This document shows, piece by piece, positions 22,177 to 24,156 of a stretch of DNA of 32,000 nt. This DNA is from Simonsiella muelleri ATCC 29453. Lineage in GTDB: Bacteria; Pseudomonadota; Gammaproteobacteria; Burkholderiales; Neisseriaceae. The first letter of the stretch is position 1, and every line of letters begins with the position of its first letter. The DNA lies in assembly GCF_002951835.1 (NCBI RefSeq), contig NZ_CP019448.1, positions 707,293 through 739,292 on the forward strand. The letters run 5' to 3'. A program made the position numbers and the translations under genes. The notes below the pieces were generated by a model, which saw only the letters and a program-made list of their open reading frames with translations, was not told the DNA's origin and ran no database searches.

Positions 22177-22318
22177 TTAATCCTTTAATAAAATAGCAGA
22201 ACGAACAACAATAAATGATAAAAATATCGATACTAAAATAATAATTGGACAAAGTTTAATAGCAGCATCACAAAAAGGCCAATAACTAATTTCATGATTT
22301 GTACCTAAAATTTTTACT
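22177..22318 (-). pseudogene. Orphan duplicate of the last 142 bp of the pIII-like gene
   Basis: About 94% identical by eye to 22660-22801. It ends at the same TAA, which here abuts the pVI start. It begins at the TACT junction with module E'. Confidence 0.8.
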
Positions 22319-22663
22319 GTAATTAATGTCAAGAAAAAAAATCAAAATAAATTAGTTGAAAAACCCATTACGCAACATTTGTTTATTTAGTCACCAGTCC
22401 TTTGAGTTATCACATCATTCAGGGTGAATGCTAAACGTTAAACAAAATTAAAAAGGCGCGTCAAGGTTAAAGTGAACGCGAGCGACCTTGACGCGCCTTT
22501 TTAATTTTATTTAACTACGCATACCCCCTGAACGATGCGATAACGGACTGATGACTAAATAAACAAACATTGCTACATTAACTATTCATTAAACTAATGT
22601 GTCATCGAGACACATTAGTTTAAACCCCCATCACTTCTACTCCTACGTCCTGATGACGTTTAA
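22315..22663 (-). repeat. Module E' (copy 2): the last 40 bp of a transposase gene plus the structured non-coding region
   Basis: Collinear with 18832-19179 and roughly 90% identical by eye. All three hairpins are retained through compensatory changes. Confidence 0.85.
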
Positions 22664-24156
22664 TCCTTTGATAAAATAGCAGAACGAACAATCATAAATG
22701 ATAAAAATATTGATACCGAAATAATAATTGGACGAAGTTTAATAGCAGCATCACAAAAAGGCTGATAACTAATTTCATGATTTGTACCTAAAATTTTTAC
22801 TTGTTTAGGTGCTGGGCAAGTACCTGATTCAACAAAATCATTTGATTTATTAAAACTATTCAAATCAACATCTGTCGTACCTATAACAAAATCACTACCA
22901 CTACTTACACCTGAAATGGCATCATTAACTTGAGCATTTGTACCCAAAAATACACAATTAACAGTATCTTGACCTGGCTTACAATCACCAACACCACTTG
23001 CAGATACATTTCCTAATATAGAACCAGTACCAGAACCTGAACCTAAAACTGATGAAGAAGAAGCTGAAGCATTAGGCATAAATCCACCAACACCCCCACT
23101 TGAGTTATTATTTCCACCGCTACCGTTATTATGTAAACGATTATAGACATCATCAACACCTGAATCATCAGAAACCTTACTGGCATTTAAAGCGTCATCA
23201 GTAGAACCGTAATTATTGTAAATCGTAATATTAACTATACCAGGATTTGAAGTGGAATCAGTAGAATATGCTGTACCATTACAATAAAGCATAGAACCTT
23301 TACTAACCCAAAAATTGTAATACTCAATTTTATAAATAGGCGGTCCCAACACACGTCTACAACTATATACATTATTTCCATGAGCTGCATAACCATCTCC
23401 ACCAGGACACATATTTTTAGAAACATCAGTACCACAAAGATCAGGAACAGTTGGAATATAAGTTGTATTACCCGAGCCATTATTAGAACTACCAGAACCA
23501 CTACCAGAACCACTACCAGAACCACTACCAGAACCACTACCAGAACCACTACCAGAACCACTACCAGAACCACTACCAGAACCACTACCAGAACTACTAC
23601 CAGAACTGTTACCAGAACTACTACCAGAACTACTACCAGAACCAGCTAAATTAGAATTTGAACCGATAGGATTATCACAAGACATTGGCACCCAAATACC
23701 ACCTACAGATTTGCCACAGAGATTAGAATTAGGTTTTTTAGTTTCATTATTAATGCCGGTATTTTTACCATCATTTCCTATAGGAATAACACAATTTATA
23801 TATAAAGAATAATCATCAATTTTACATACAGAACCAGGATCAGCAGTTTTTTGAATATCTGGTAAAACTGATTTTAAAGCTTGCATAGGCGTAGAAAATC
23901 TTTCACCAACACACTTGCCAACAGAATCATCAATTGTACAAACAAAGGAGCTCTTATCAGGAGTAGTATAAACACGATAGAACCCACCGTATTTATCATC
24001 ATTAAAATAATAAACATAAGCACGATAATTAGCACTAAAATCAGGAACAAAATCAGAGATCAATTTAAGTGGTATCTTTACTTTTGTAAGAGCAAAAGAA
24101 CTACATGATAAAAAAAGCAACATTAATAAAAATACTGCCTTTAATTGTTTAAACAT
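22660..24156 (-). CDS. pIII-like adsorption/minor coat protein with a Gly/Ser linker
   Basis: Signal peptide MFKQLKAVFLLMLLFLSCSSFA. Cys-rich domains are separated by (GS)n tracts. The C-terminal anchor is IISVSIFLSFMIV. The track start at 24174 has no SD, so the ATG at 24156 is more likely. Confidence 0.7.
   Translation of the reverse strand: MFKQLKAVFLLMLLFLSCSSFALTKVKIPLKLISDFVPDFSANYRAYVYYFNDDKYGGFYRVYTTPDKSSFVCTIDDSVGKCVGERFSTPMQALKSVLPDIQKTADPGSVCKIDDYSLYINCVIPIGNDGKNTGINNETKKPNSNLCGKSVGGIWVPMSCDNPIGSNSNLAGSGSSSGSSSGNSSGSSSGSGSGSGSGSGSGSGSGSGSGSGSGSGSGSGSGSSNNGSGNTTYIPTVPDLCGTDVSKNMCPGGDGYAAHGNNVYSCRRVLGPPIYKIEYYNFWVSKGSMLYCNGTAYSTDSTSNPGIVNITIYNNYGSTDDALNASKVSDDSGVDDVYNRLHNNGSGGNNNSSGGVGGFMPNASASSSSVLGSGSGTGSILGNVSASGVGDCKPGQDTVNCVFLGTNAQVNDAISGVSSGSDFVIGTTDVDLNSFNKSNDFVESGTCPAPKQVKILGTNHEISYQPFCDAAIKLRPIIISVSIFLSFMIVRSAILSKD
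23491..23646. repeat. Tandem 12-bp repeat (ACCAGAACCACT), 8 perfect plus 5 imperfect units
   Basis: Read directly from the sequence. It encodes the in-frame GSGS... linker of the pIII-like protein. Confidence 0.95.

Follow-up and report, generated by a model that had tools for sequence, protein, structure and literature searches.

The question raised by this locus is how a filamentous prophage came to carry, between two of its structural genes, a second copy of its own right end together with a second copy of the end of one of those genes. The window analysed is a 32,000-nt stretch of Simonsiella muelleri ATCC 29453 (NZ_CP019448.1), and all coordinates are positions in it. The prophage occupies 18831-27048 on the minus strand and is an 8.2-kb, Nf/MDA-like filamentous phage, here termed type 1. 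Pfam matches were obtained for Rep_trans, Phage_Coat_B (weak), Neisseria_TspB, DUF2523 and Zot, and the inovirus core genes stand in canonical order (Rep, coat, pIII/TspB, pVI and pI/Zot), an order that is repeated in relatives. An IS110/Piv-type transposase or recombinase of 330 aa (19136-20128, minus strand; Pfam DEDD_Tnp_IS110 and Transposase_20, E about 1e-22), with homologues annotated as IS110 family transposase or pilin inverting protein, is encoded at the right end of the prophage, as is the integrase of Nf/MDA-like phages. It is followed by the non-coding terminal module E (18831-19135, minus strand), which ends ..CTTGACATTTATTACAGTAT and adjoins a CT core, while the left end (LE; 26965-27046, minus strand), located upstream of rep, begins TATATATTAGAG. 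The whole prophage had no megablast match among the INPHARED phages, and Rfam models run over 18000-27500 gave only sub-threshold miRNA-like matches, on hairpins.

The pIII-like (TspB-like) minor coat/adsorption gene (22660-24174, minus strand; 504 aa, identified from the ORF list and a Pfam Neisseria_TspB C-terminal match) contains a length-variable SGS repeat tract, with 12-nt tandem repeats at 23452-23680 detected by the repeat finder. An exact look-up of the 504-aa product found no record, since the repeat tract varies, and a homologue search with the full protein returned two matches, as the low-complexity repeat swamped the search. On the minus strand the gene ends at 22660 and is followed by a copy of the final ~40 coding nucleotides of the IS110 transposase (22620-22658, from alignments; ..KRHQDVGVEVMGV and the stop), by E', an internal copy of the structured non-coding right end (22319-22619), by the redundant pIII', a repeat of the 3'-terminal 142 nt of pIII (22177-22318), and by the pVI-like gene (21871-22173; 100 aa, DUF2523, from the ORF list and Pfam). 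This succession, which had been described in an earlier, sequence-only reading of the same DNA, was confirmed by direct reading and by the repeat finder, which paired 22176-22318 with 22659-22801 (D6; 143 nt, 94%) and 18853-19152 with 22337-22636 (D2; 300 nt, 92%). In the alignment, 22662 down to 22319 was homologous to 19180 down to 18836, a segment comprising the transposase 3' end and E. The divergence of the duplicated parts, given earlier as about 6-10%, measured 6.3% for the pIII ends (9/142) and about 8% for E versus E', and a chance origin is excluded for repeats of such length and identity. The 3' end of the intact gene (R1, 22660-22801, minus strand), called A-type from the repeat finder and the outgroup comparison, retains the residues conserved among outgroup pIII C-termini; the B-type copy pIII' (R2, 22318-22177) precedes GGATTAAAAAATG and the start of pVI at 22173.

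E' contains a 15-bp hairpin at about 22592-22620 and a giant imperfect hairpin with arms at 22372-22403 and 22542-22573 and inner arms at 22437-22467 and 22485-22515; its tail is A/T-rich with a TTGACA, and compared with the true right end E' is 3 nt short and has no CT core. Direct reading placed a 5-nt homology at the left joint (22659-22663; TTAAA on the minus strand, TTTAA on the plus strand), present both around the pIII stop/pVI start and in the transposase 3' end, and this microhomology, already pointed out in the sequence-only reading, is real. The right joint (22315-22318) has a 4-nt homology, AGTA on the minus strand and TACT on the plus strand, common to the end of E (..TTACAGTA/T-CT, the slash marking the joint) and to pIII (..AACAAGTA/AAAA); intact pIII has the same tetranucleotide at 22798-22801. 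The strings quoted previously for the E'/pIII' junction (TTTTTACT/GTAATTAATG, at 22311-22328) and for the equivalent point of intact pIII (TTTTTACT/TGTTTAGG, at 22794-22809) were also correct.

The block is a genuine rearrangement product, and relatives show the pIII stop directly abutting pVI. Alignment to homologous prophages, a check that had been recommended, recovered this ancestral layout in five IMG/VR relatives, in the co-resident type-2 phage, which has the same transposase and E as type 1, and in two contigs (L033 and L034), where the pIII-pVI junction reads GGATTAAAAAATG; E' was found in none of 80 related inovirus contigs. The block itself was 98-100% identical in nine of the ten loci carrying the exact pVI, as well as in L026, and the loci that bear it lie at six or more different chromosomal sites, two of the copies being in CP083930.1. 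The identical arrangement was thus seen twice in that complete genome, and also in at least 10 independent metagenome or run assemblies. Old and inherited, the block belongs to the normal layout throughout the circulating phage lineage, and is not a rearrangement internal to the resident prophage as had been supposed: homologous phages carry the same layout, the very observation that the sequence-only reading had set against itself.

The explanation that we favour, and consider probable, is one old self-duplication by illegitimate, short-homology joining, followed by drift, which has become a fixed structural feature of the type-1 phage. Both joints lie on short homologies (TTAAA, 5 nt, and AGTA, 4 nt), and the unrearranged junction is known from relatives and from L033/L034. 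In a single event in the ancestor of all sampled copies, the phage would have joined its own right-end module, made up of the last ~40 nt of the recombinase gene and the ~300-nt hairpin-rich E without its three terminal nucleotides or the CT core, into the pIII/pVI boundary, at TTAAA on the left and AGTA on the right, duplicating the last 142 nt of pIII. At its simplest, the route may have consisted of two template switches, or two deletions, in an intermediate (a head-to-tail dimer or a rolling circle) formed by the same phage or by one nearly identical to it, which would make it a replication-error or break-repair route, and a self-duplication, not a capture from a diverged phage. The redundant pIII' and E' would have drifted by ~6% afterwards, while the pIII copy attached to the gene stayed conserved. 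Against a randomly placed breakpoint, E' ends 3 nt from the crossover point, a coincidence of roughly 1 in 1000 over 8.2 kb, so that the RE/LE junction may have been broken site-specifically, by recombinase cleavage or a replication nick, before repair through short homology. Against a chance deletion at TTAAA, an independent internal E-like copy in type-3 phages starts within 3 nt of the E' start, as could be expected if the left boundary were a hot spot or a defined end.

The distribution of the substitutions bears on the source of the duplicated parts. The nine nucleotide differences between pIII' and pIII change seven codons, six of the seven non-synonymously, and pIII' is derived at every polarisable site, including an Arg to Cys change at an Arg that is invariant in 10 outgroups. 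When the differences between E and E' were polarised with two outgroups, 10 were derived in E' and three in E; E' is the faster-evolving copy, and E has some derived changes too. The divergence of the redundant copies pIII' and E' is similar, about 6%. Since the divergence is concentrated on these copies, a second, diverged phage is not required. At least three compensatory double substitutions occurred on the branch of E' itself, and among three sequences 15 of 104 hairpin pairs had double changes. Compensatory changes in E' are unexpected under pure neutral drift, unless they reflect quasi-palindrome correction or function.

A mosaic of two phages that had already diverged (A and B), for instance a tandem pair reduced by two illegitimate deletions, is in our judgement unlikely. 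Phage A would have supplied rep to pIII, the transposase 3' end and E', and phage B would have supplied pIII', pVI to the transposase, and E, with L033/L034 representing phage B. Modular exchange between co-resident phages is indeed rampant: types 1 and 2 are 98% identical in rep/LE and 99.7-100% identical in transposase/E, with unrelated structural genes, and E'', the internal E-like copy of type 3, proves that a phage can capture a transposase 3' end and E, as one block, from another. The derived changes of E are also accommodated by a mosaic, as are the E'-less contigs L033/L034, in which the pIII end is all B-type. These contigs are otherwise 100% identical to the window, however, and the identity of the L033 pIII upstream of the joint is likewise 100%, so that outside the repeat no divergence between A and B can be seen. 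They would be secondary deletions between the 143-bp repeats; alternatively, they may preserve the state before the insertion, and the block would then have been acquired recently, from a diverged donor. Searches of IMG/VR, the GTDB representative genomes and the JGI metagenomes, and of the E copies that lie behind 94-100% identical transposases, turned up no A-type terminal E. Pattern scans for an intact E'-type right end (TTGACATTAATTACAGTATCT; in terminal position ..TTGACATTAATTACAGTAT-CT) or an E'-type transposase 3' end found none in IMG/VR, and in GTDB genomes and JGI metagenomes the same scans gave only chance 21-mers from unrelated taxa. Finally, the B-type C-terminus has lost residues that all outgroups conserve, which is more in keeping with a decaying fragment than with a functional gene end.

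It is rather improbable that E is a discrete, portable hairpin cassette, repeatedly copied from a fixed left end (..TTAAA/CGTCATCAGG) in the last 40 nt of the recombinase gene into new intergenic positions and acting, for example, as a host-polymerase-dependent complementary-strand origin or a packaging signal open to every phage of this host, with E' and E'' both retained as functional elements. Nicking by the replication initiator or aberrant termination at ..TTAAA/CGTC would then start a one-ended, rolling-circle-type transfer, and, if true, such a style of module transfer would operate within ssDNA phages. The independent internal copies E' (pIII/pVI) and E'' (type-3 pVI/zot) do have starts within 3 nt and different ends, and E'' is the sole E-like element of type 3 and occurs in every copy. 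The hairpins are kept intact by the compensatory changes described above, and integration does not require the giant hairpin, as relatives have right ends of 33-101 nt. A cassette alone, however, leaves the 142-nt duplication in pIII unaccounted for; E'' has a left flank other than TTAAA, E' is evolving faster than E, the E'' of L129 lacks the hairpin apex, and a consensus scan of E' for promoters or terminators serving pVI/pI stayed at background. E was also considered as an IS1111-style 3' bridge/seek RNA, and this candidate was rejected because guide-like matches to attB/attP were absent, the hairpins are missing from the short right ends of relatives, and a better RNA candidate lies upstream of the gene.

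The sites at which the recombinase acts can be read from empty loci. Two of them (L012 and L017) give attB as ..TTCAGGCTGCC-CT-ATTATGAAT, that is TTCAGGCTGCC-CT-ATTATG with a CT core, at the end of a DUS-like repeat (TTCAGGCTGC-CT). The empty site ..GGCTGCC-CT-ATTATGAAT.. corresponds to the occupied junctions ..GGCTGCC-CT-TATATATTAG.. and ..ACAGTAT-CT-ATTATGAAT.., the CT being seen in the empty locus and, for six or more sites, at each of the two junctions. Comparison of empty and occupied sites placed the right copy of the core at 18829-18830 (AG on the plus strand, with chromosome below) and the left copy at 27047-27048, the DUS-like flank (GGCAGCCTGAA, plus strand) starting at 27049; the dRS3 repeat, ATTCCC..GGGAAT, does not occur in attB. 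Integration of the phage by the recombinase takes place at GCTGC-CT-AT.. sites, which mostly form the end of a host DUS-like repeat. The attB predicted previously, TACT/TGTTAGAT, was mistaken: TGTTAGAT (27006-27013) lies 43 nt inside the phage left end, and the prediction had been misled because a sequence resembling the right-end terminus (AACAAGTATCT, about 26999-27009) occurs within LE.

These sites appear to be chosen by a putative bridge-RNA-like structured leader of the recombinase gene (20135-20252, minus strand), recognised from covariation and guide matches. Its segments are LTG-like (GCUGCCU, 20228-20222), RTG-like (AUUAUGAUAG, 20209-20200), LDG-like (ACGGUAUCU, 20168-20160) and RDG-like (UGUAAG, 20141-20136). 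Across 15 leaders, from transposases 44-100% identical, three helices were 89.5% paired compared with 27-48% when slid, and 15 of 20 pairs showed double changes, a level reached in 0 of 500 shuffles. The reverse complement of the RTG segment matched the flank contiguously over 10 nt in L007 and L057, 8 in L058, 7 in L042 and L052, 6 in L048 and 5 in L032; the guides of L057 and L058 differ at one nucleotide, and their flanks differ to match. Left-target and donor guides gave partial matches, and some sites had none (L003, L029 and L051). Copies of a type-1 variant (variant 2) are located at CT-TTTTATT sites, which fit the guide of type 2 (L042). The RE-CT-LE junction, reconstructed and checked by eye, reads ..TTGACA TTTATTACAGTATCTTA TATATT.., a predicted promoter with a 17-nt spacer and a -10 supplied by LE; TTGAC is conserved in the right ends of relatives. 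Taken together, the many natural insertions, the known empty site, the CT core and the covarying leader with predictive guides indicate that Nf-like filamentous phages probably integrate by the bridge-RNA mechanism described for IS110 elements; in the literature searched, filamentous phages were not connected with bridge RNAs.

According to the sequence-only reading, a second, related phage had been integrated by the recombinase at a pseudo-attB (TACT/TGTT) in pIII, after which a TTAAA deletion removed pVI to the transposase of one copy; we regard this as very improbable. Just 3 nt separate the end of E' from the real recombination point, the same recombinase does insert phage into phage in Simonsiella muelleri (L030), and pIII shares the 8-nt AACAAGTA with the phage left end. 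This last match is treated as a coincidence, as E' has an E-type end (ATTAC-AGTA), not left-end sequence. The joints, however, do not coincide with the recombinase crossover site: E' halts at ..ACAGTA and proceeds AAAATTTT like pIII, with a 4-nt overlap, so that the joint reads ..ACAGTA/AAAA against the true end ..ACAGTAT-CT, 3 nt short of the terminus and without its last T or the CT core. The attB that this integration needs is contradicted by the empty-site sequence, its matching sequence being internal to the phage; pIII has no GCTGC-CT-AT-like site at the joint (CAAGTAAAAA), and the supposed mimic (GCACCTAAACAAGTAAAAATTTT) has neither a core in common with TTCAGGCTGCC-CT-ATTATG nor a guide match. 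A single right-end-like joint is present at the block, the other lying inside the transposase gene, in contrast to the complete type-2 phage inside zot of a type-3 prophage (L030 versus L129), in which both junctions, LT-CT-LE and RE-CT-RT, are precise. The lineage-wide arrangement and a divergence pattern that needs no second lineage also argue against it. The target preference drawn from this junction, (A/T)TACT/TGTT(T)AG, is unfounded, and the natural flanks and guide segments point to GCTGC-CT-AT(C/T)AT. Insertion of a mobile element with target duplication was likewise discarded, the flanking repeat being 142 nt long and the end sequences differing (TTAAA versus TAAAA). The chance of an assembly artefact, a collapsed tandem array, is negligible: tandem filamentous prophages do occur, and phages are nested in L030, but the same junctions were present twice in a finished genome and in numerous independent assemblies that differ in sample and assembler.

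The natural readout of integrase target preference that the block had promised is invalid, and a better one is offered at the locus by the many independent natural insertions, the empty site, the CT core and the RNA guides that predict the flanks; the left-target guide of the type-1 phage matches the end of the host DUS-like repeat. The E' block exemplifies the duplication and shuffling of hairpin-rich end modules between co-resident filamentous phages, and is a caution that internal repeats are unsafe for inferring att sites.

Among known systems, Neisseria filamentous prophages of the Nf/MDA-phi type carry an IS110/Piv-like (pivNM/irg) transposase and integrate into dRS3 (see PMC7058167, PMC2212043). 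The phage studied here shares with them the order of replication initiator, small ORFs, coat B, TspB-like pIII, DUF2523 pVI and Zot-like pI, the IS110-family recombinase as last gene, a host in the Neisseriaceae, and an abundant short chromosomal repeat as target, giving many alternative sites and multiple copies per genome. It differs in its host, Simonsiella muelleri, in its target, the end of a DUS-like repeat (TTCAGGCTGC-CT) and not dRS3, in a TonB_C gene on the opposite strand, and in the 300-nt hairpin-rich right end with an internal copy; for Nf phages, such a copy was not met with in literature consulted more generally. The proposed self-duplication also resembles rearrangements of the Ff phages (M13/f1), in which illegitimate recombination, duplications and miniphage formation occur around the intergenic/origin region: in both, a hairpin-rich non-coding region lies next to a replication gene, the joints have very short homologies, and one end is at or near a site-specific cleavage point. 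Unlike the defective Ff miniphages, the phage that resulted here is full-length, carries an additional copy and is inherited stably.

The integration system is closest to IS621, an IS110-family element with bridge-RNA-guided recombination (Durrant et al. 2024, PMC11208160). The mobile unit, unlike IS110 elements, is an 8.2-kb phage; about 7 kb of phage genes lie between the left terminus and the putative RNA, so that the junction promoter would face rep and not the RNA, and donor-loop pairing is weaker (6 nt with a wobble). As in IS110 bridge-RNA systems, the recombinase has DEDD and Transposase_20 domains, attB contains one CT core and each prophage junction one copy of it, the target being otherwise unduplicated, a predicted sigma-70 promoter is reconstituted across RE-LE (TTGACA-17 nt-TATATT), and a structured leader stands directly upstream of the recombinase gene. 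In this leader a 5' loop segment reads as the left target and core, a 3' loop segment is the complement of the core and right target, and a further, conserved segment has the sequence of the right-end terminus and core.

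The ORF list and Pfam domain matches placed a filamentous prophage on the minus strand of the window, with the genes, in prophage order, Rep_trans (26964-25309), a 102-aa ORF, coat B (24913-24677), a 111-aa ORF, a TspB-like pIII (24174-22660), a DUF2523 pVI (22173-21871), a Zot-like pI (21864-20824), a TonB_C gene (20301-20741) running opposite to the others on the plus strand, and an IS110-family transposase (20128-19136). The TonB C-terminal-domain gene was present in all copies of this phage (type 1) and absent from type 2, another S. muelleri filamentous phage. A 12-nt SGS-coding tandem repeat is located inside pIII (23452-23680), and the length of pIII differed between otherwise near-identical copies (478, 492, 498, 504 and 524 aa).

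Unoccupied integration sites were found by looking up the chromosomal gene adjoining the prophage. At two loci from other assemblies (L012 and L017) the empty site reads ..AATTTTTCAGGCTGCC-CT-ATTATGAATATT.. (L012:5990-6003), whereas the occupied left junction reads ..GGCTGCC-CT-TATATATTAGAGCC.. and the occupied right junction ..CTTGACATTTATTACAGTAT-CT-ATTATGAAT.. This comparison therefore fixes the core as CT (copies at 18829-18830 and 27047-27048) and the prophage as 18831-27048, and it assigns to the phage 43 nt, including TGTTAGAT (27006-13), that the sequence-only reading took for chromosome; the same 43 nt accompany the phage at other sites (L002, L005, L029, L030 and L032). The attB predicted in that reading was wrong, since TGTTAGAT lies inside the phage left end, and the GATACT "direct repeat" behind it is a sequence within the phage that resembles the right terminus (AACAAGTATCT, ~26999-27009, ~43 nt inside the left end). 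This look-alike is kept in the distant relative L022 (AACAGTATCT, L022:1289-1303), and may be what survives of an older end or att junction. Left flanks finish in GC-CT, with a DUS-like TTCAG(G/A)CTGC-CT at three of five independent sites; the left target flank in the window is the end of a DUS-like repeat (TTCAGGCTGC-CT), and therefore the phage integrates next to DNA-uptake-sequence-like repeats, in many cases shortly before the start of a gene. The repeat finder detected a DUS-like palindromic repeat, TTTCAGGC(A/T)GCCTGAAA, dispersed across the window. At the phage left end in L005 (5051-5090) there is a 17-nt tandem duplication (TATATATTAGAGCCTCT) with CT dinucleotides on both sides.

The structured non-coding right end of the prophage (E) has an internal copy (E') between pIII and pVI, which forms a block with a transposase 3' end and a redundant second copy of the last 142 nt of pIII (pIII'). 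A 143-nt repeat (22176-22318 vs 22659-22801, 94% identity) and a 300-nt repeat (18853-19152 vs 22337-22636, 92% identity) were obtained with the repeat finder, and in the alignment the homology of the right end to the internal copy started within the final ~40 nt of the transposase gene and extended to ..ATTACAGTA, confirming the duplication described in the sequence-only reading, whose quoted junction strings were all found in the window. An exact-protein look-up of pVI gave ten places, nine of them with a pIII-to-pVI gap of 483-486 nt, and L026 is one further locus with the block. These copies adjoin different chromosomal genes and are 98-100% identical in the block, while E and E' are still only ~92% identical (BLAST). 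With the same block at many loci, it is therefore the normal gene layout of this lineage and not the event local to this prophage that had been proposed, an outcome which the sequence-only reading had itself named as counting against it. The pIII stop directly precedes pVI in five IMG/VR contigs (Zot 65-78% identical) and in the type-2 phage of the same genome, and E and E' were both absent from 80 inovirus contigs that encode a homologous transposase; judging from these gene orders, pIII abutting pVI is the ancestral state.

The block probably arose by self-duplication of the phage's own end module, in which a single duplication would have been followed by drift. The two pIII copies have nine differences in seven codons, six of them non-synonymous, and against ten outgroup C-termini the pIII-attached copy retains a conserved Q, an invariant R, S and S where pIII' has W, C, L and L, a loss that gives pIII' the appearance of a drifting redundant fragment. 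Polarised with two outgroups (E'', the E-like unit of type-3 phages, and the E of L048), 10 of the E/E' differences were E'-derived and three E-derived; distant outgroups, and at least three compensatory double changes of its own on the E' branch, are caveats to drift. The block is missing from this phage in two run assemblies (L033 and L034), short-read contigs running through the repeat; over 717 + 3490 nt they match the window at 100.000% identity, and their pIII closes with the pIII'-type 142 nt, after which comes GGATTAAAAAATG. Under self-duplication these would be secondary deletions between the repeats. The two copies do not differ over the first 43 nt of the repeat, and therefore a crossover there yields an all-pIII'-type end; L033 and L034 could instead be ancestral. 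Both redundant parts, pIII' and E', are diverged by ~6%, which fits a single self-duplication and drift; a mosaic of two phage lineages is unlikely.

The joints refuted the proposal that a recombinase had integrated a second phage at a pseudo-attB in pIII. E' tracks E up to ..ACAGTA and then reads AAAATTTTAGG, identical to pIII after ..CAAGTA, with a 4-nt overlap (AGTA); a true phage end would go on T-CT, so that the joint falls 3 nt before the crossover and lacks the core. In contrast, a real product of this recombinase inserting one phage into another, a complete type-2 phage within zot of a type-3 prophage (L030), has exact CT junctions, ..CGCTTGAGC-CT-TATATATT.. and ..ACAGTAT-CT-ATTATGTTTAAACC.. 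(L030:2732-2760 and 10279-10320), where the uninterrupted zot (L129:10294-10330) reads ..CGCTTGAGC-CG-ATTATGTTTAAACC.., with CG at the core position. The target motif derived from the pIII site also fell, as that site bears no likeness to the real target; what stands of the earlier interpretation is an old illegitimate rearrangement with a 5-nt TTAAA as the second joint. Misassembly of a tandem array is excluded by the recurrence of the block, including twice in the finished genome CP083930.1. In L006 (9825-9997), chromosomal sequence is fused to the final 31 nt of E' with nothing in between, and pIII', pVI and zot come next; either the scaffold is chimeric or this is what is left of a truncated prophage.

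Three elements make up E: a 15-bp hairpin immediately downstream of the transposase stop, an imperfect giant hairpin with a ~90 bp stem, and a 65-nt tail finishing TTGACATTTATTACAGTAT. Right ends of relatives have only 33 or 101 nt and no giant hairpin, which is therefore an accessory outside the integration machinery, and a candidate complementary-strand origin, packaging signal or terminator. Joining both ends in a reconstructed circle (18836-18856 to 27046-27030) gives TTGACA-17 nt-TATATT, a near-consensus predicted junction promoter facing rep and split when integrated; promoter formation across joined ends is a described principle (PMC11208160). Type-2 phages (L029, L030, L032 and L042-L046) share with the window phage the rep/left end (98%) and the transposase leader and E (99.7-100%), while their coat-to-Zot genes are unrelated; the type-2 phage in the genome that also carries the window phage has the identical transposase, and where the transposase is only 94% identical, the E that follows it is still 100% identical. 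Type 3, widespread in S. muelleri, has an unrelated IS110 gene of its own and lacks E at its right end, yet every copy carries between pVI and zot a unit (E'') 80% identical to E (L129 9292-9534; L030 1647-1966). This unit starts with the foreign, window-type transposase 3' end (..HHQDVGAEVMGS, stop), at most 3 nt from the E' start, and ends earlier than E', without flanking gene duplication. Two independent captures that share a left boundary argue for a hot spot or defined end at ..TTAAA|CGTCATCAGG, which tempers a simple TTAAA microhomology deletion. The L129 unit has lost the apex of its giant hairpin. No transposase gene was called in L007 (3222-4391), where E is ~300 nt nearer the TonB gene than expected, which suggests an internal deletion.

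Upstream of the transposase lies a bridge-RNA-like structured leader (20252-20135, minus strand), 120 nt conserved upstream of transposases down to 44% identity. Its three strongly covarying helices are 89.5% paired (27-48% in slid controls), with double changes in 15 of 20 pairs, and none of 500 shuffles was as good. The first loop carries GCUGCCU, the left target plus core, on its 5' side and AUUAUGAUAG, the complement of CT-ATCATAAT, on its 3' side; in all homologues this 3' segment has AG at its end and then AUUGG. Its complement matched the real flanks over 10 contiguous bases in L007 and L057, eight in L058, seven in L042 and L052, six in L048, five in L032 and four in the window (seven counting a G.T pair). 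L057 and L058 are one guide base apart and their flanks differ to correspond. Leader segments ACGGUAUCU and UGUAAG match the right terminus ACAGTAT-CT and, with one wobble, CT-TATA; in L058 all four segments are matchable. The sites of L003, L004, L029 and L051 do not match their own guide. Type-1 variant-2 phages (L003:6262-6300, L004:6255-6290, also L009) sit at CT-TTTTATT, unmatched by their own right-target guide and matched by that of the co-resident type-2 L042 (3263-3300, 4585-4620), which is located at the same site as L003, a pattern that suggests use of the guide in trans, or module exchange after integration. A leader variant (L003, L004, L005, L009 and L010) has a 4-nt TTGC deletion in the left-target-guide region (window 20231-20228) and a C>T adjoining the donor guide (window 20166).

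As a duplication within a phage genome the block is of modest interest, and more interest attaches to the putative RNA-guided integration system of the locus and to the repeated capture of the E cassette. No link between filamentous phages and bridge RNAs was found in the literature searched. The logic of the window leader is the same as that of the IS621 bridge RNA (PMC11208160), but here the system sits in a phage, whose architecture is that of the Nf/MDA-type phages of Neisseria (PMC7058167).
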